Source: Candidatus Kerfeldbacteria bacterium (GTDB taxonomy: Bacteria; Patescibacteriota; Patescibacteriia; UBA10025; JAHIVO01). From it: a DNA stretch of 64,000 nt. This document shows positions 31,924 through 62,380 of this stretch, piece by piece. The DNA lies in assembly GCA_047946875.1 (NCBI GenBank), contig CP181398.1, positions 463,818-527,817 of the forward strand, given 5' to 3'. Under the pieces are notes generated by a model. The model saw only the letters and a program-made list of their open reading frames with translations. It made no database searches and was not told where the DNA came from. The translations under genes and the position numbers were made by a program. Position 1 is the stretch's first letter. Each line of letters starts with the position of its first letter.

Positions 31924-32108
31924 CTCCTATTTTTATAAAGATCTAATTAAATAATCTTATTACAACGGTTAAGAGTAGTCAAATACGTCTTGACCCTCAA
32001 AAAGGCCTATGTTATGATATATATATAACTGCGTATAATAACTCTTACACTCAGTTATATACATAGGTAAATACCCTATTAACTATATGTATATATCCTT
32101 TACCGCTT

Positions 32109-32152
32109 GTCATTCCGGGCTTGTCTGTCCGCCTCAGGAGGAATCCGGAATC
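32109..32152. repeat. GC-rich hairpin repeat (left copy; inverted partner at 34265-34289)
   Basis: GTCATTCCGGGCTTG[tctgtccgcctcaggagga]ATCCGGAATC. Apart from the 19-nt insertion it is the reverse complement of GATTCCGGATCAAGCCCGGAATGAC at 34265-34289. It contains the ATTCCGG/CCGGAAT palindrome. Confidence 0.6.
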
Positions 32153-32187
32153 TCTGATATAATTAAAACGTTAACTAACTTCCAAAT

Positions 32188-33126
32188 ATGTCACTACCTT
32201 ACATAGATGATTATCTATTAAACCTCCAAACTAATAACTACTCTGAAAAGACCGTTTACAACTACGAACGCGATTTAAAGGTGTTTGAGGAATACTTGGA
32301 TAAAGAGTCAAAGAAGCAGTTTAACACGCTTAAAAGGCGCGATATTGAGCTCTACAAGGCCTATTTGGTGTCTAGGGATCGAAATACTGCCAAGGGTGAG
32401 AAAAGCCTTAAAAAGCTAAATGCTTACTCCATGAATAGGATGTTATCTGCCTTACGCTCGTACTTGAAGTATATGATAGATAATGATTATAAATGTCCTG
32501 TTAACCCTCAAATGATCCGTTTATCGAAGACTACTAAGAAGCATCCTCAAGTTGCAGAATTAGAAGATATTGTTAGGTTGATAGAGTCCCCATCAAAATA
32601 CGAGAAAGCCAAACACATAGCTCTTCGTAACCGCGCCATGATGGAAGTATTATTCGCAACTGGCATGAGAATCTCAGAACTGATAAACTTGAATAAGAAT
32701 CAGATAGATGCAACTGGAAAAATATTTATCGAAGGTAAAGGACGCAAGCAACGTTTCGTTTATATGACAGAGAGAGCAAAACTTCATACAGAAAAATATT
32801 TAAACTCTAGAGGAGATAATCACCCTGCTTTATTCATCCCCTACCGTGGGTCTAATGCCGGTTCTATAAATTCGCGCATATCGCCTAATTACTTACAAAT
32901 GAAGATAAAACAGTACCGAGAGCGTTTAAAAATTAATGTTCCAACCTCAGCCCATAGCTTACGTCACGGGTTCGCTACATACTTAGCTGAGTCAGGCGCC
33001 AACCCCGCCGCGATCCAAATACTCCTAGGTCACGAATCACTAGATACTACTACAAGATATGTAAATGCCTCAGATAAATTCGCCGAAAAATCTCACCGGA
33101 AATTCCACCCCCTAAAAAACAAATAA
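32188..33126 (+). CDS. Tyrosine site-specific recombinase, XerC/XerD family
   Basis: 312 aa. The C-terminal catalytic region ...SAHSLRHGFATYLAESGANPAAIQILLGHESLDTTTRYVNAS supplies the R...H..R..Y residues. An N-terminal SAM-like domain is present. Its GC is higher than that of the core genes. Confidence 0.85.
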   Translation: MSLPYIDDYLLNLQTNNYSEKTVYNYERDLKVFEEYLDKESKKQFNTLKRRDIELYKAYLVSRDRNTAKGEKSLKKLNAYSMNRMLSALRSYLKYMIDNDYKCPVNPQMIRLSKTTKKHPQVAELEDIVRLIESPSKYEKAKHIALRNRAMMEVLFATGMRISELINLNKNQIDATGKIFIEGKGRKQRFVYMTERAKLHTEKYLNSRGDNHPALFIPYRGSNAGSINSRISPNYLQMKIKQYRERLKINVPTSAHSLRHGFATYLAESGANPAAIQILLGHESLDTTTRYVNASDKFAEKSHRKFHPLKNK

Positions 33127-33250
33127 CACACTCTTGTCACTCTGAGCTTATGCGAAGAGTCCCCTGACCGCAGGTCAGGAGATACTTCACTTCGTTCAGT
33201 ATGACAATCTAAAATTTCATCCACTTAAAGATAAATAATATATCAATCAT

Positions 33251-33421
33251 ATGAATGAATATAATCCAATAAAACATGAAAAAGAAATCAAAAAAACACA
33301 AAAAAAGAATTCACCCTTTAAAAACGTTATTATTATTCTAATCATTATCGGACTTTTATGTTTCTTACCTTTAATGTTTTATTTTGTTATGTTTTTTCGT
33401 CCAGATAAGATCTTTGGTTAA
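33251..33421 (+). CDS. Small membrane protein (56 aa), not in ORF track
   Basis: ATG at 33251 opens MNEYNPIKHEKEIKKTQKKNSPFKNVIIILIIIGLLCFLPLMFYFVMFFRPDKIFG. The stop is TAA at 33419-33421. It is preceded by the repeat CCACTTAAAGATAAATAA at 33221-33238. Confidence 0.3.
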   Translation: MNEYNPIKHEKEIKKTQKKNSPFKNVIIILIIIGLLCFLPLMFYFVMFFRPDKIFG

Positions 33422-33519
33422 TTTGATTTCTTATTAAGTATTCTCAAAAAAATAATCATGCATTAAAAGAACTTCGCAAAAAATTTCACCCACTTAAAGA
33501 TAAATAATTAATTTACCAG

Positions 33520-33561
33520 CCGTAACTTCATGCGAAGGCTGGACCACTTAAAGATAAATAA
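33520..33561 (+). repeat. 42-nt direct repeat copy 1 (CCGTAACTTCATGCGAAGGCTGGACCACTTAAAGATAAATAA)
   Basis: It is nearly identical to 34178-34219. It ends 1 nt before the ATG at 33563. The 18-nt core CCACTTAAAGATAAATAA also occurs at 33221-33238 and 33490-33507. Confidence 0.65.
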
Positions 33562-33562
33562 T

Positions 33563-34084
33563 ATGAAAAAAATTAATGACAAAAGTATTCTAATAATTGA
33601 AATCTTTTTCATGTCTCTTGGTACTTTTTTTATTATTTCCTCCTTATTTATCCCAAAACTTTTTTCCTGGTTAACCATAAATTATCAATTTGAAGCACCC
33701 CATTTAGTTATTCTCATCATCGGGCTTGCGGGGGTAGGTTTTGCCTGGTATCACAACATTAGAACAACTAATTTTAAAAGGCAGGATCATCCTAAGCAAA
33801 TTAGTTCTATTACACAAAGCTTTGTTAATATTGGTATTACTACAGGAAATATTTTACTGGGATATTTACTTGGTATCTTAGTTACCTACGTCATTAGTAT
33901 TTCAATAACTGAAACTCAACGAATAGTGTTTGGAATAGGTATAATGATGATTTATACTTCCTTATTAGGAATATTTGCAAAAAAAGATAAACAAAAGTTT
34001 TTAATAATGGTTTTAATAACATTAATGATTGCATGGCTTCTATCTATCGTATCTGGTTTATTGGACAATGCAATAAATAATTAA
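33563..34084 (+). CDS. Hypothetical polytopic membrane protein
   Basis: MKKINDKSILIIEIFFMSLGTFFII... has four or more TM helices. I chose the start at 33563 rather than the track start at 33530, because 33530 lies inside the direct repeat. Confidence 0.45.
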   Translation: MKKINDKSILIIEIFFMSLGTFFIISSLFIPKLFSWLTINYQFEAPHLVILIIGLAGVGFAWYHNIRTTNFKRQDHPKQISSITQSFVNIGITTGNILLGYLLGILVTYVISISITETQRIVFGIGIMMIYTSLLGIFAKKDKQKFLIMVLITLMIAWLLSIVSGLLDNAINN

Positions 34085-34177
34085 ATTCTTTTATGCCTCA
34101 GACAGGTTCGCTGAGAAGTCCCATCATAAATATCACCCTCTAAGCAAAAAAGAATAATTAACTAACAACTTTATCCG

Positions 34178-34219
34178 CCGTAGCTTTATGCGAAGGCTGA
34201 ACCACTTAAAGATAAATAA
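34178..34219 (+). repeat. 42-nt direct repeat copy 2
   Basis: CCGTAGCTTTATGCGAAGGCTGAACCACTTAAAGATAAATAA. Together with the copy at 33520-33561 it brackets the membrane-protein gene. Confidence 0.65.
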
Positions 34220-34227
34220 CTTTATAA

Positions 34228-34299
34228 AACATCCCTCATCCTGAACTTGATTAAGGATCCCCGAGATTCCGGATCAAGCCCGGAATGACAAACTAATAA
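34228..34299 (+). repeat. ~75-nt dispersed element, intact copy (AACATCCCTCATCC ... hairpin ... GAATGACAAACTAATAA)
   Basis: It contains the inverted hairpin copy at 34265-34289 and ends 1 nt before the ATG at 34301. Degenerate copies lie at 38524-38611 and 40194-40208. Confidence 0.55.
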
Positions 34300-34300
34300 T

Positions 34301-35152
34301 ATGAATGAAAACAAGCAAAAAATTATTGAACGATACTACCAATATTCCACACCATATTTATTGAAATACTGGTCTGATAAGGAAAGTATGAGTATTCATT
34401 ATGGTTTTTGGTACCCAGAAACAAAATCGCGTAGCGAAGCATTCTTAAACCAACACCGCTCAGTAGTCGAACTACTACAACCTTCGGCTGATGATTATAT
34501 CCTAGATATAGGTTGTGGAGTCGGCGGCGTTTCTACATGGCTCGCACAGCATACACCAGCACGCTACGTCGGTATCACTCTCGCTGACAACCAAATCCGT
34601 ATGGCCCGACAATTAGCCCAACGTCGAAAAGTGGCAGACCGTACAGCATACAGCCGTATGGATTTTTTTAAAACATCTTTCAATGATAATACCTTTACTA
34701 AGGCATTTGCTATTGAGAGTATTTGTCACTCTTATCCACGCCAACTTGAAGTATTTCGAGAAATGTACCGTATCCTTAAGAAGGGAGCAACTTTACTTAT
34801 TTCTGATTCTGCCCTTTTTCGGCAAGCAACCGGAAAGCAAGAATTAAAATGGGTAAAAAATTTCTGTAACGGCTGGGCCATGACTGATTATAGTACTATT
34901 AATGACATTGTAATTTCTTTAAAAAAGGCGCAATTTAAAAATATACGAATCATCGACCGAACAAAGCTTGTCTCACGTAATATTAATCAAATTTATTGGA
35001 TCGGCATCTGGTCATATCCATTGTTAAAAATCAAGCAACTACTTGGCCATCTTCCAAAAATAGTATTAGGTAACAACCTGGCCGCAGTTACCCAAAAGAA
35101 GTTAGTTAATGCCGATCTGGCCGGATATTTTTCAATTATTGCTCACAAATAA
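34301..35152 (+). CDS. Class I SAM-dependent methyltransferase
   Basis: The glycine-rich SAM motif ILDIGCGVGGVS is present, as is the downstream acidic residue typical of the Rossmann MT fold. It is 283 aa. Its GC is higher than that of the core genes. Confidence 0.7.
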   Translation: MNENKQKIIERYYQYSTPYLLKYWSDKESMSIHYGFWYPETKSRSEAFLNQHRSVVELLQPSADDYILDIGCGVGGVSTWLAQHTPARYVGITLADNQIRMARQLAQRRKVADRTAYSRMDFFKTSFNDNTFTKAFAIESICHSYPRQLEVFREMYRILKKGATLLISDSALFRQATGKQELKWVKNFCNGWAMTDYSTINDIVISLKKAQFKNIRIIDRTKLVSRNINQIYWIGIWSYPLLKIKQLLGHLPKIVLGNNLAAVTQKKLVNADLAGYFSIIAHK

Positions 35153-57898: not shown

Positions 57899-57905
57899 AT
57901 TTATT

Positions 57906-58073
57906 TTAAAATTTATATTTCTTTATTATAACTTGTTTTTTCGTTTTATTAAAGTCGACTTCAACAGTCTCCCCTCTCTGCCAGCCCAATTCTTTTATTA
58001 AGTCTTTCGGTAAAGTAATTACATAACTATACTTACCAGTTTGAAAGATCTTACGCATTATTCTTGTTTCCAT
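57906..58073 (-). CDS. AbrB/MazE/SpoVT-type small DNA-binding protein (55 aa), not in ORF track
   Basis: The minus-strand ATG at 58073 opens METRIMRKIFQTGKYSYVITLPKDLIKELGWQRGETVEVDFNKTKKQVIIKKYKF. The looped-hinge-helix pattern (G.S..V.LPK..R..LG...GD.V) is present. It lies directly upstream of rlmH. Confidence 0.45.
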   Translation of the reverse strand: METRIMRKIFQTGKYSYVITLPKDLIKELGWQRGETVEVDFNKTKKQVIIKKYKF

Positions 58074-58102
58074 AGTATCATTATTTAATAATTAATTGAA
58101 TA

Positions 58103-58164
58103 CTATATGCTTATTATATAAGTAGTATATAATAGCTATATGCTTATTATATAAGTAGTATATA
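58103..58164. repeat. Tandem direct repeat, 2 copies of a 29-nt core with 33-nt period
   Basis: CTATATGCTTATTATATAAGTAGTATATA occurs twice, at 58103-58131 and 58136-58164, separated by ATAG. Confidence 0.7.
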
Positions 58165-58180
58165 CTACTATCAATATTTT

Positions 58181-58215
58181 GTCAATAAAAAAAGCCTCAC
58201 AAATGTGAAGCTTTA
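58181..58215 (-). terminator. Probable terminator downstream of 58221-58406
   Basis: GCCTCACAAATGTGAAGC is an imperfect hairpin preceded by AAAAAAA, which is a U-run on the minus strand. Confidence 0.35.
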
Positions 58216-58220
58216 AATAT

Positions 58221-58406
58221 CTATTTTAATCTAGATATTAATCCTATCATTAAGGTTGATATACCAGTTAAAAGAATAAATCCTTCAACCATTAATACTA
58301 CCATTTTGATAGAACCTTTTATCCTTCTTCGAGATCTTATTTGCTTTCTTTTTAAAGAGAGCAGGAGGATAAAACCACCGAAGAGGATAAGTATTTCATT
58401 ATTCAT
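58221..58406 (-). CDS. Small membrane protein
   Basis: 61 aa with two TM helices separated by a basic loop (RKQIRSRRRIK). Confidence 0.3.
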   Translation of the reverse strand: MNNEILILFGGFILLLSLKRKQIRSRRRIKGSIKMVVLMVEGFILLTGISTLMIGLISRLK

Positions 58407-58460
58407 ACTAATCCTCTTTTTACTTAATTAAACACTTTAATCAAGTTGGGAATTAGTATG

Positions 58461-58495
58461 TAAAAAGAGCTAACCTCCGCCTAGAGGTTAGCTCG
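58461..58495 (-). terminator. Rho-independent terminator downstream of the cyclophilin gene
   Basis: GAGCTAACCTC cgccta GAGGTTAGCTC is a perfect 11-bp stem preceded by AAAAA, which is a U-run on the minus strand. Confidence 0.7.
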
Positions 58496-58519
58496 ATTAA
58501 GTATTTATGTCAATACTAA

Positions 58520-59176: not shown

Positions 59177-60913
59177 TTACCAACTCCCTCCTCCACCTCC
59201 TCCAAAGCCACCTCCAGAAAATCCACCCCCACTACTAAATCCAGAAGTCCCACCCCCAGAACTATTAGGACGGCTAACCATGGCAGAATTTACATTACTT
59301 GTCATAGAGCTAAGAGAATTAGCAAGATATAATGCACCAAAAACATTGCCTGCATTACCCTCATACCAATCAGGTGGCGTTAGATATATATCGTCAAATT
59401 GACCAGCCCATTCTTTTTCTACTCCCAAGACCATGGCATAAGGTAGATTTTCTTCAAAAGATTTGGGTGATTTAGTCGGAGAATTATGAAATTTCAATCG
59501 CTCAGTCTCAGTTACAGACAAAAACCACTTAAATCCAAGAATTTTACTATGTGTTTCTGCTCCCTTAATAGTCTTCCTTGGCATAATGAATGCGAAGATG
59601 ATTGTTATTGCTACACCTACTCCTATACTAACAAATGTCAAAGTCCCAAGAGTGCTTGTAGCAGCTGCTAGTATAAACATAACTATTATAATTGAAATAG
59701 CACCAATACTACCGTACATTGTTCTTACTTTATCAGGGTTAGCAGGAAAATAATCATTTGTAACAACTAATTCATATATTGATTTTTTTATGCCTGGCAG
59801 ATGAGTATAAAATTTATTCTTTAGAGCTGATACTTTCTTTGTGTCATTTTTACCAAAAATTCCTTCAAGTACAAGTTTTTCAAATTCAATTAAACTACCA
59901 TCTGAATCTTTTAATTTTATCAATTCATAATCCTTACTCTTACCTATTAATTTTTTTAGATCAATTTCTTTTATTTTGATATAACCTTTTACTGCCAATT
60001 GAATTATAGTTGCAGATATATCTTTAAGATCAACCTTCTCATCAACAATTGTTCCTAATTCCCCTGCTGTCATCTTATTTGGAGATTCATAAATTGGAAT
60101 AATTGTATCTCGTACTTCTGGATCACGGCCTCGTGTGTACCACAAAAAATACATAACTATAAATATTAACAATGGAAAGAATATTGGCCAATTATCTTGC
60201 ATAAACCATAAAAATAATTGCATTCCATCTGGCTGTATAGTTATACCTTTTGGCCAGCCGAATACTACAGTTAAACCTTCATCTGAAGATAAAGTACTAT
60301 TAGAGGAAAACTCAATCCCCTCATCTATATTAGAAACTGTGCAATCCTGTTCTTCTGAACCATAAATACCTGTATAGCAAGCTGTTTGTAGTTCAGAATT
60401 TGAAATATTTTCTGATAATGAAACTAGAGCACCAGATTTTTTTATATCCAAATACCATTCATTACCAGTAACATTCCAATAAAATTCATCATAATCTTCA
60501 AAATAATTGATTGCCCGATCAACTTTGTATTCAATTACATAATTTTTAACACCTGAAACATACTTATCCGCATCCCCAATTTTTATTTCAAATTCACCGG
60601 AACTCTTGGAGACCGTATAAGTAAGAAAATTGTTATTTTCATCCACTACCGATAATACATTTATTCTCAAATTATATTTATAACCATCTCTTTCATAAGA
60701 ATAAGGAATTGTCCTATAGATACCATGTCTTTCCATTTTCTCAAAATTATAGGTAATATGCTCCACCACAGTGATACTACTATCCTGATTAATCGAAATT
60801 ACGCTATAAAATTGATCAATTTGTTCACCCGAAGGACCAGTATTAAGTCCAAGAGTCATTGTTGGGATAAAAAGTAATATGAATATTAGTACTAATTTTG
60901 TAATTATCTTCAT
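59177..60913 (-). CDS. Large membrane protein with C-terminal Gly-rich tail (DUF2207-like)
   Basis: Signal peptide MKIITKLVLIFILLFIPTMTLG (I placed the start at the internal Met, 60913), then an extracytoplasmic domain, several TM helices, and a C-terminal ...GGGTSGFSSGGGFSGGGFGGGGGGSW. The architecture resembles DUF2207 proteins as I recall them. Confidence 0.4.
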   Translation of the reverse strand: MKIITKLVLIFILLFIPTMTLGLNTGPSGEQIDQFYSVISINQDSSITVVEHITYNFEKMERHGIYRTIPYSYERDGYKYNLRINVLSVVDENNNFLTYTVSKSSGEFEIKIGDADKYVSGVKNYVIEYKVDRAINYFEDYDEFYWNVTGNEWYLDIKKSGALVSLSENISNSELQTACYTGIYGSEEQDCTVSNIDEGIEFSSNSTLSSDEGLTVVFGWPKGITIQPDGMQLFLWFMQDNWPIFFPLLIFIVMYFLWYTRGRDPEVRDTIIPIYESPNKMTAGELGTIVDEKVDLKDISATIIQLAVKGYIKIKEIDLKKLIGKSKDYELIKLKDSDGSLIEFEKLVLEGIFGKNDTKKVSALKNKFYTHLPGIKKSIYELVVTNDYFPANPDKVRTMYGSIGAISIIIVMFILAAATSTLGTLTFVSIGVGVAITIIFAFIMPRKTIKGAETHSKILGFKWFLSVTETERLKFHNSPTKSPKSFEENLPYAMVLGVEKEWAGQFDDIYLTPPDWYEGNAGNVFGALYLANSLSSMTSNVNSAMVSRPNSSGGGTSGFSSGGGFSGGGFGGGGGGSW

Positions 60914-61027
60914 AAATTTATTGATAGTAAATATTAATTTTATTATATCATAAAGAAAAATAATATATAACAAAACAGCCTAACATAAATTAGTTGCTAC
61001 CCTCCAGCAATTTTTTAGATATATGTA

Positions 61028-61213
61028 CTACTTATACTGCTGTTTCAGCCTAACATGCTCCACTTCATCTAGACACTCTTCACAATAGACTGGCTCATGT
61101 ATCTCTTCACCACAACCAGAACAATAATTGCGGATGTGTCGTATCCCCAAAAACCTCTTCATCTGTTGGAACTTCATGTCAGTTAACAACTCCTTACGGG
61201 TTTTTGTTCTCAT
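61028..61213 (-). CDS. Small zinc-ribbon protein
   Basis: 61 aa with CSGC...CEEC paired CxxC motifs. Confidence 0.35.
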   Translation of the reverse strand: MRTKTRKELLTDMKFQQMKRFLGIRHIRNYCSGCGEEIHEPVYCEECLDEVEHVRLKQQYK

Positions 61214-61300
61214 ATTTTTTATTTAGTGAATAGTTTCAGGCAGTGCCTGATCTCCTGCAAAGCCGGACCAGGCTCTGCCTGGCGGTTACAACTATGCCGG
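61214..61300 (-). promoter_or_regulatory. GC-rich structured 5' leader / candidate small RNA
   Basis: Hairpins CAGGCAGTGCCTG (61227-61239) and CCAGGCTCTGCCTGG (61258-61272) lie in an otherwise AT-rich 500-bp intergenic region. They sit immediately upstream (minus strand) of the zinc-ribbon gene. Confidence 0.25.
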
Positions 61301-61714
61301 AAATTATATATTTTAATAAGATATTGCTAGACAGGATCTTTTAAATAACTCTCTGACTTAAGTCCTGGTCACACACCAAGGAATCCGGATCAAGAACTCT
61401 AGATATTAGGAAAAACATCCATTTTCCCTGTTACCTGACTTGATACCTGCTTAATATAAAGAAAGCAATCCTGCCTAACAATCTATTATCAAATTTTTTA
61501 ATAAACAAAAAACCAACTACTATTTTTATTTCAAAATTTTGTGTTGGTATTTGTATTTAGTGTTTCGCAGCTATTTCTACTTGATCTAGCTTTAATCACT
61601 ATAATATTCGATTTTCCACTTCTTTGGCGTTTGGCACCTCAGTAAGTACCTACAATATAATATTGAACGGTTTTTTAGTCAAATACTGTCCTGTGGATAA
61701 GTATTTGGTAATAA

Positions 61715-62380
61715 TCAAGACAAAGAAAAAGGATTAAAATTTGTTTTTTCATCATAGACATCAATATTCTCCTTTTGCTTTAATTTATTTGTTATTAGAT
61801 AAGTCAAAGGTGTAGCCAAAGTTTCAAAACTAACTTTAAATATATAATTAGAAATAATAATTGATACCAACAAACTATCAGGTAGCACCCCATAAAAAGC
61901 AACCAAAACAAATATCGATGTATCTATCCCCTCACCTACAATCGTCGAGCTGATAGTTCTTAGCCACAACCTCTTTCCTTGAAAATACACTTTCATTTTT
62001 GCCATGATATATGAATTTGAAAATTCTCCAAAGAAATATGCAATCATCGAAGCAATTACAATCCTTGATGTTAATCCTAATATATTATCGTACGATTCCT
62101 GAAATCCCCAATCAGCTGCAGCTGGCAAATTACCAACAATAACCAAAACTAGAGACATTAATAATGCACTAAAAAAACCTGTCCAGATAACTCTTCGAGC
62201 TGCTTTGTACCCATATACCTCTGTCAAAATATCACCAAATATATATATGATTGGAAAAAGAATAGTTCCACCATCAAAAATAAATGGTCCAAGATCTAGA
62301 ATTTTGGTTGAAGCTATATTAGAAATCAGTAGCACTGCCACAAACAGGCCTAAGATTATATCGAAATATTTATACCTCAT
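61715..62380 (-). CDS. YhhQ/DUF165 family transporter (queuosine-precursor/vitamin uptake type)
   Basis: ...GGTILFPIIYIFGDILTEVYGYKAARRVIWTGF... matches the YhhQ-family signature. It has about 6 TM helices. Its start overlaps the upstream gene's stop (ATGA). Confidence 0.55.
   Translation of the reverse strand: MRYKYFDIILGLFVAVLLISNIASTKILDLGPFIFDGGTILFPIIYIFGDILTEVYGYKAARRVIWTGFFSALLMSLVLVIVGNLPAAADWGFQESYDNILGLTSRIVIASMIAYFFGEFSNSYIMAKMKVYFQGKRLWLRTISSTIVGEGIDTSIFVLVAFYGVLPDSLLVSIIISNYIFKVSFETLATPLTYLITNKLKQKENIDVYDEKTNFNPFSLS

Follow-up and report, generated by a model that had tools for sequence, protein, structure and literature searches.

6S RNA (SsrS, RF00013) is about 185 nt long, a largely double-stranded rod with a long helix that closes both ends, and in Escherichia coli it is co-transcribed with a downstream open reading frame (ORF), as ssrS-ygfA, and then processed out. 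The autoregulatory or RNase III-processed leaders of ribosomal-protein, pnp and rnc mRNAs are large domains of the 5' untranslated region (5'-UTR) on the gene strand, in which a long helix ends just before the start codon, and they can be gained or lost while the gene stays. Three-way-junction riboswitches, such as the purine and thiamine pyrophosphate (TPP) classes, also reside in the 5'-UTR and combine covarying helices with nearly invariant junction and loop nucleotides, while dual-function RNAs (RNAIII/hld, SgrS/SgrT, SR1/SR1P) are short, mostly structured transcripts in which a small ORF is the sole coding part. Traits of all these systems recur at a locus of a Candidatus Kerfeldbacteria bacterium (Patescibacteriota), in a 64-kb stretch of contig CP181398.1 that we refer to, at its whole length, as the window. 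There, the gap at 61214-61714, which holds no long ORF, precedes on the minus strand a mini-gene for a zinc-ribbon protein and contains an RNA, here named module 2, which is conserved, structured, encoded on the gene strand and strictly linked to that gene. We consider it highly likely that a real conserved structured RNA exists here.

Module 2 also departs from each of these systems. Unlike 6S RNA, which has a large central bubble, it folds into a three-way junction with a side hairpin (an exclusion that is not absolute, P2a being its weakest helix), and it matches no Rfam 6S model, occurs in few Patescibacteria only and is always tied to one mini-gene. It has no sequence or structural homology to any of the described autoregulatory leaders. 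In contrast with the few switchable pairs of the three-way-junction riboswitches, its closing stem comprises 26+7+5 bp (38 bp), with neither a downstream terminator nor a helix sequestering the Shine-Dalgarno sequence, the only terminator lying upstream. The short predicted transcript (about 550-650 nt) and its ORF of about 60 codons recall the dual-function RNAs, but here it is the ORF that is strongly conserved, whereas some lineages do without the RNA domain.

Patescibacteria, or candidate phyla radiation (CPR) bacteria, have tiny, tightly packed genomes, and to our knowledge few regulatory RNAs have been described for them; a search of the literature on structured RNAs or 6S RNA in this group returned nothing resembling module 2. 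The gaps between the 72 ORFs of at least 70 aa in the window have a median of 41 nt and only four reach at least 400 nt, so the 500-nt gap is exceptional, as an earlier note on this DNA (the original prediction) had observed. We fetched 34 homologous loci (L001-L034), about 1-8 kb of each relative, and in every contig 190-600 nt without a credible gene precede the mini-gene. This spacing is kept whichever gene lies upstream (Vut_1, WecG, nitroreductase or a divergent NAD synthase gene), and a DUF2207 membrane-protein gene always follows. A conserved non-coding element of about 300 nt, kept across lineages despite a 41-nt median gap, must do something.

Structure and covariation of module 2

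Read 5' to 3' on the gene strand, the aligned upstream regions contain a TTGACA-N17-TAnAAT promoter, a first conserved segment (module 1), module 2 and a spacer. The window carries the promoter, both modules and the spacer, plus a block of about 74 nt unique to it. The features that define module 2 and its gene are the following.

61028-61213, minus strand: mini-gene for a 61-aa protein in which two helices flank a C-x2-C-x9-C-x2-C zinc knuckle
61494-61306, minus strand: module 2, a conserved block and structured RNA of ~185 nt, about 100-280 nt upstream of the ATG
61493-61467 with 61338-61312, minus strand: helix P1, 26 bp, pairing the 5' and 3' ends of module 2
Within module 2, minus strand: helix P2, CUUUCUU/AGAGAG in the window and CUUCUUU/AAAGAAG in the consensus, after a 10-nt 3' bulge
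Within module 2, minus strand: helix P2a, UUGAG/CUCAA (UUAAG/CUUAA in the window), closing the three-way junction
Three-way junction of module 2, minus strand: arm P3-P3b-P4, with conserved AAGUNAGGUAGCAAGGAAA in the window and nearly invariant AAGUAAGGUAGCAAGGAAA
Three-way junction of module 2, minus strand: hairpin P5, CCUUGG/CCAGG

The evidence base consists of 13 full-length sequences from one narrow clade. On a MAFFT alignment of 11 distinct sequences RNAalifold recovers the 26-bp P1 and predicts 42 pairs, 13 of them compensatory, while separate minimum-energy folds of the 11 sequences yield one common architecture. A hand-written structure of 64 pairs was counted on two alignments: the MAFFT alignment (n=11), which is not fitted to a structure, and a 13-sequence alignment that leans towards the structure since it was fitted to a covariance model. 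In the MAFFT alignment 89.5% of the cells are paired, slid controls reaching 37-54%, and compensatory change is seen at 20 pairs; the corresponding values for the model-fitted alignment are 89.1%, 38-52% and 25 of the 64 pairs. Covariation scores reach 0.31 (slid controls 0.08-0.13) and 0.33, respectively. None of 500 shuffles of the MAFFT alignment attains the observed value on four measures, 17 do so for 'further pair types', and none of 500 does so for the model-fitted alignment. Covariation this clean is unusual for so few sequences, which makes module 2 a good candidate for an Rfam family and a target for structure probing.

The support differs among helices. P1 and P2 are solid, P1 being 95% paired and of constant length with 13 covarying pairs (n=13). 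Support for P2a, the weakest helix, is moderate, with 75% pairing and 4 covarying pairs; P3 and P5 stay mostly invariant, and the only changes in P3b and P4 are between G-C and G-U. Sequence conservation is high in the internal loops and the junction, and these invariant nucleotides suggest a specific protein or ligand partner.

The folding energy of module 2 in the window is -60 kcal/mol (z -5.2) on the minus strand versus -34 (z -2.0) on the plus strand. The covariance model built from it (R1, 183 positions) scores 151 bits on the minus strand of the window versus 25 on the plus strand, and 98-170 bits forward versus 20-39 in reverse across the loci. Furthermore, several pairs are predominantly G-U on the gene strand. 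Energies, scores and G-U pairs together place the RNA on that strand. Differences between lineages fall evenly on the three frames (0.39/0.38/0.34), with no codon periodicity, and the module differs less than the third codon positions of the mini-gene (0.37 vs 0.59). The original prediction had placed a structured RNA, possibly regulatory, in the leader of the mini-gene, and in this it was right; the conserved RNA, however, is a different segment from the GC-rich hairpins it had singled out, further upstream, and the compensatory substitutions it had proposed to look for in relatives are found in module 2 (the 25 pairs above) and not in the GC-rich block.

R1 matches are found once per locus, on the gene strand and just upstream of the mini-gene, in 13 distinct lineages and in two truncated contigs; the 64-kb window holds no second copy. 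Across relatives, 4-20 nt separate the end of the match from the ATG, and 10-26 nt the last P1 pair. A degenerate motif spanning P3-P5, searched in one genome per species over 185,579 species, retrieved four contigs, all metagenome-assembled genomes (MAGs) of Patescibacteria, and the mini-gene lies directly downstream in all four. Both modules occur in 13 lineages (the window, L001, L002, L004, L005, L007, L008, L012, L013, L015, L024, L029 and L030). L018 and L033 are contigs cut inside module 2. In four loci (L009, L022, L023 and L031) module 1 stands by itself immediately ahead of the gene, its terminator ~30-55 nt from the ATG, and three (L014, L019 and L032) carry neither module but a promoter only. 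Module 2 is never seen without module 1 or without the mini-gene. L033 and L034, from different ENA assemblies, both start at the same base in the P3 3' strand of module 2, which could reflect an assembly break at the hairpin or shared reads.

No Rfam family accounts for module 2. Rfam 15 gave no match at gathering thresholds over the whole window; at E<=10 on 60900-61800 (901 nt) it returned only chance matches to small nucleolar and long non-coding RNAs (12-24 bits against cut-offs of 43-70), and at E<=2 on eight homologous loci one unrelated chance match. The scan with Rfam covariance models that had been proposed along with the original prediction thus identified no family. ARAGORN reported no tRNA or transfer-messenger RNA (tmRNA). 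Signal recognition particle RNA, RNase P RNA, tmRNA, T-box, hammerhead, retron non-coding RNA and omega RNA were considered and set aside, their motifs or partner genes being absent and Rfam giving no match. An 8-nt similarity of AAGGUAGC to the 3' region of 16S rRNA is expected by chance.

Promoter, module 1 and mini-gene

Upstream of module 2, the region contains the following elements.

61692-61700, minus strand: DnaA-box-like 9-mer, TTATCCACA, 9 nt upstream of the -35
61654-61682, minus strand: putative sigma-70-type promoter, with -35 TTGACT at 61682-61677, a 17-nt spacer and -10 TATATT at 61659-61654
~61647-61501, minus strand: module 1, a conserved leader RNA of ~95-145 nt across sequences, with one hairpin and one terminator-like hairpin
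About 61601-61558, minus strand: hairpin H1 of module 1, closed by GUG../..CAC (GUGUU/AACAC in per-sequence folds), with a variable interior
61554-61505, minus strand: terminator-like hairpin of module 1, formed by A-tract, CCAAC, A-rich loop, GUUGG and U-tract

The TTGACT-17-TATATT site is the top promoter-like site of the gap, matching 10 of 12 positions, and places a predicted transcription start near 61647. Promoter-like sites are no more numerous in the region than in shuffles; hence, the support for this promoter comes from conservation, not from the scan, relatives having TTGACA-N17-TAnAAT at the equivalent or a nearby position. Apart from TTATCCACA at 61700-61692, neither strand of the window has an exact DnaA-box 9-mer. 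In 12 of about 19 distinct related loci this 9-mer stands 0-8 nt ahead of the -35; besides the window, the loci that carry it upstream of the -35 include L001, L004, L005, L007, L008, L012, L013, L015, L024, L030 and L031, the last without module 2. Its position suggests DnaA-dependent control of the promoter unit, with DnaA binding at TTATCCACA itself a prediction, and offers a testable link between replication control and a clade-specific small protein plus RNA. In L013, L005 and L015, about 40-60 nt upstream of the module 1 promoter, the box is part of a long palindrome (GGATAAC...GTTATCC): it supplies the 3' arm, and an inverted copy of it the 5' arm. Between the arms, the spacer varies by genome but stays self-complementary. 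In the same three loci a conserved GAGAYCCYTCRC...TCAGG precedes the palindrome, for which the window has no counterpart.

Module 1 starts with a 5' single strand bearing the motif ACAAYUGAAUA (AAAAUCGAAUA in the window), and a CA-rich linker separates H1 from the terminator-like hairpin. One plan emerges from 15 separate per-sequence folds, with a terminator consensus of A-tract, CCAAU, A-rich loop, AUUGG and U-tract. A U-tract is found in all 15, the CCAA/UUGG core hardly changes and the pairs inside it covary; the fold of the window module has a z of -3.6. On the other side, MAFFT with RNAalifold yields no consensus pair for module 1, H1 included, because H1 varies too much in length, and this weakens the terminator reading. 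The terminator stems contain 2-4 G-C pairs, with loops of about 3-18 nt in per-sequence folds. In our view intrinsic termination at this hairpin would be weak or leaky.

The mini-gene is real and conserved. Pairwise differences by codon position (0.18/0.12/0.59) show that it is clearly coding. Word-indexed searches of 5.8 billion proteins retrieved first 17 and then 25 homologous clusters, 48-92% identical, and all named homologues are hypothetical proteins of 'Patescibacteria group bacterium'. An exhaustive hidden Markov model search of 1.84 billion representatives recovered only two true clusters at 50% identity; the family is therefore very small. An AlphaFold2 model depicts a helix, the zinc knuckle and a second helix, at a mean confidence (pLDDT) of 72. 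The protein has no significant match in Pfam, where Zn_ribbon_6 stays below threshold, in NCBIfam, where the YvyF/TraR matches are likewise sub-threshold, or among PDB sequences, which gave chance CxxC matches only; a Foldseek comparison of the model with the PDB returned nothing below E=1. It matches no RNA-binding family and is not basic overall, with a net charge of about +2 by our own count.

Public annotation of this gene is misleading in some relatives. Four gene calls (P0001, P0002, P0003 and P0013, from loci L004, L007 and others) give proteins of 88-92 aa that begin 27-31 codons too early, inside the 3' strand of helix P1, where the window has stops in frame. The likeness of the N-terminal extensions stems from conservation of the RNA and not from translation, and the case carries a lesson for annotation: a mini-ORF may be called from within an RNA. 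In relatives (L026-L029), a hairpin plus U-tract follows the mini-gene stop and precedes the DUF2207 gene, so the mini-gene may be monocistronic. The corresponding segment of the window (60914-61027) has weak hairpins only (z -1.1) and a promoter-like site at 60931-60903. A literature search on DUF2207 gave nothing relevant.

Possible roles of module 2

We favour, with a probability of roughly 0.45, the interpretation that module 2 is a cis-acting structured leader of the mini-gene mRNA. The whole gap would then be the long modular 5' leader of a small transcription unit encoding the zinc-ribbon mini-protein. The sigma-70-type promoter beside the DnaA-box 9-mer would start the transcript and module 1 would be made first; polymerases passing its terminator would go on to make module 2 and then the mini-ORF, which may be expressed only through such read-through. 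Module 2 would control the stability or the translation of the read-through mRNA in cis, the likely route being a protein, possibly the mini-protein itself, that binds the conserved junction and internal loops, and/or RNase III cutting the long helix. No terminator, that is no hairpin plus U-tract, is seen between module 2 and the ATG in any member, so both presumably lie on one transcript. A promoter belonging to module 2 itself was considered and rejected: the sole -10-like sequence, TTAATAnTAT, is covered by the outermost pairs of P1, which nevertheless covary, and the RNA should therefore start upstream, inside or before module 1.

Several observations weigh against this interpretation. 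Start site, read-through and processing are all predictions from the sequence of the locus. Module 2 has no recognisable expression platform, with no terminator after it, and the Shine-Dalgarno sequences that are visible (L024, L030) lie outside, 3' of P1. A closing rod as long as 26+7+5 bp would be expected of a stable excised RNA sooner than of a switching leader. Lineages without module 2 have essentially the same mini-protein, which does not favour an obligatory protein-RNA partnership, and since 74 additional nt are tolerated ahead of the ATG in the window, spacing between the RNA and the gene is not critical. As for module 1, a simple or consensus terminator scan reports none in the window, the hairpin being too AU-rich and long-looped, and by-eye inspection of the 15 sequences found no conserved antiterminator pairing. 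A riboswitch in the strict sense would add an expression platform, which is not found in any member, to what module 2 does possess, namely a gene-strand 5'-UTR domain with covarying helices and invariant junction nucleotides; the gene context (mini-protein, DUF2207) suggests no particular ligand.

Some of these same features would suit a stand-alone, trans-acting stable RNA, 6S-like or part of a ribonucleoprotein, excised at the 26-bp terminal helix, for which co-transcription with the mini-gene would be mere convenience. Its length of ~185 nt and the long helix joining both ends resemble stable RNAs; P1, 95% paired and constant in length, is an ideal RNase III substrate; and the missing expression platform, the highly conserved loops and junction and the tolerated 74-nt insertion all fit. 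We nevertheless judge this origin of the signal somewhat unlikely. Neither 6S nor any other Rfam family is matched at E<=10 on the 901 nt, nor in the eight homologous loci, although divergent 6S RNAs are known to escape the Rfam 6S model. The core is a three-way junction whose 5' side has no unpaired bases, and P2a, which closes that junction, has 4 compensatory pairs. Moreover, the RNA is tied strictly to one gene, has been lost in several lineages that keep the gene, and has a very narrow distribution (4 of 185,579 species genomes).

In a related scenario, which we hold to be unlikely, module 2 is a new class of trans-acting RNA of this Patescibacteria clade, excised at P1, with its synthesis linked through DnaA to replication status. 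It could then serve as a 6S-like decoy or act with a protein partner, and the mini-protein could be a second output of the unit.

A further alternative takes module 1 as the actual regulator, a small riboswitch or protein-dependent attenuator whose terminator would gate the mini-gene, with module 2 an accessory domain placed between attenuator and gene in part of the clade. In effect, module 1 is more widespread than module 2 and sits directly before the gene in L009, L022, L023 and L031; its ACAAYUGAAUA motif, the closing pairs of H1 and the terminator with U-tract are conserved, and no other promoter is seen between that terminator and the gene. The interior of H1, however, is highly variable and the alignment gives no consensus structure, inspection reveals no alternative antiterminator pairing, and with 2-4 G-C pairs and loops of about 3-18 nt the terminator may simply be leaky. 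L014, L019 and L032, furthermore, have neither module. We therefore regard this alternative as improbable, less so than the explanations that follow.

The GC-rich block and neighbouring sequences

The remaining explanations concern the segment next to the start codon and the DNA itself.

61228-61301, minus strand: GC-rich insertion of 74 nt, holding the hairpins of the original prediction, between the 3' end of module 2 and the start codon
61715-62380, minus strand: upstream gene, for a Vut_1/YhhQ-type (queuosine-precursor) transporter

The original prediction had proposed that three nested GC-rich hairpins beside the ATG are a riboswitch, a thermosensor or an independent small RNA. The block does stand out from its AT background as described (57% GC vs 30% for the window), and it lies inside the leader of the gene. 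Folded as had been suggested, the 107 nt beside the ATG beat all 200 shuffles on both strands (z -3.8 and -3.9), with an energy of -32 kcal/mol (z -3.8). The elements themselves, CAGGCAGTGCCTG at 61237-61249, CCAGGCTCTGCCTGG at 61268-61282 and CCGG at 61263-61266 and 61297-61300, are present, but they do not form three nested hairpins: the minimum-energy fold contains one interrupted hairpin of ~21 bp and a separate one of 5 bp.

Conservation decides against a regulatory role for this block. A pairwise alignment with L004, whose mini-protein is 92% identical, delimits a clean gain of 74 nt, and neither L004 nor any other aligned relative has a counterpart; neither conservation nor covariation is thus possible, and the claim of a conserved regulatory structure fails here. 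No copy with up to 3 mismatches exists elsewhere in the window, blastn-short found nothing similar in the 34 related loci, and viral contigs gave no similar sequence either. The block has no Rfam match and no U-tract after it. When the full leader is folded, the block makes up a separate domain; the structure of module 2 is undisturbed, and the start-codon region, with no pairing to the block, remains open. We therefore rate a riboswitch, thermosensor or small RNA at this position as very unlikely; the block is probably a recent, lineage-specific insertion, tolerated and outside the conserved mechanism, and its eye-catching hairpins are a second caution for annotation, as they are probably not the functional part. 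The block resembles repetitive extragenic palindromic (REP) or miniature inverted-repeat transposable element (MITE) insertions in being small, GC-rich, self-complementary, intergenic, transcribed and present or absent among close relatives. Unlike these, it is single-copy in the 64 kb and the fetched loci, and comparison with L004 shows no terminal inverted repeats and no target-site duplication or duplicated flank; its sole inverted repeat, ATAGTT/AACTAT, is internal.

That the inverted repeat of module 2 acts instead as DNA, be it an operator palindrome, a cruciform or the termini of a miniature mobile element, is hardly credible. In its favour, the 26-bp P1 can equally be read as an inverted repeat in the DNA, with AT-rich ends (TTAATA..TATTAA), and a DnaA box lies nearby. 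Against it, many pairs of module 2 are G-U on the gene strand and would be A-C on the other, folding energy and model score are strongly asymmetric between strands, and four internal helices covary too. The element also keeps its synteny and single copy in lineages with mini-proteins 52-92% identical, which marks it as inherited, not mobile.

A link to a mobile repeat family had also been proposed, through a piece of an island hairpin repeat placed at 61371-61384. The sequence concerned, GAATCCGGATCAAG, is really at 61381-61394, ten bases off. Its reverse complement, CUUGAUCCGGAUUC, makes up the 3' strand of P3 together with the P3-P5 junction of module 2, a segment that every relative keeps as CUUGANCCGGAUUCCUUGG. 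The 14-mer thus belongs to a conserved part of module 2 and gives the proposed link no support. Its one near match in the window (13/14) is at 34265, and at least 2 matches arise in 3 of 100 shuffles; the resemblance to the hairpin at 34265 is coincidental, and the island repeat is unrelated to the module 2 RNA. The island itself (32000-35000) is a GC-richer region with repeated 30-70-nt units containing small hairpins (families D3, D14 and D19), for example at 33501-33571, 34159-34229 and 34265-34299.

The Vut_1/YhhQ-type gene upstream of the gap has an overlap with the stop of the WecG/TagA gene before it; a preQ1 riboswitch was detected nowhere in the window. The second-largest gap between long ORFs (57899-58519) holds small ORFs only, among them a 55-aa AbrB/MazE-like ORF at 57906-58073.

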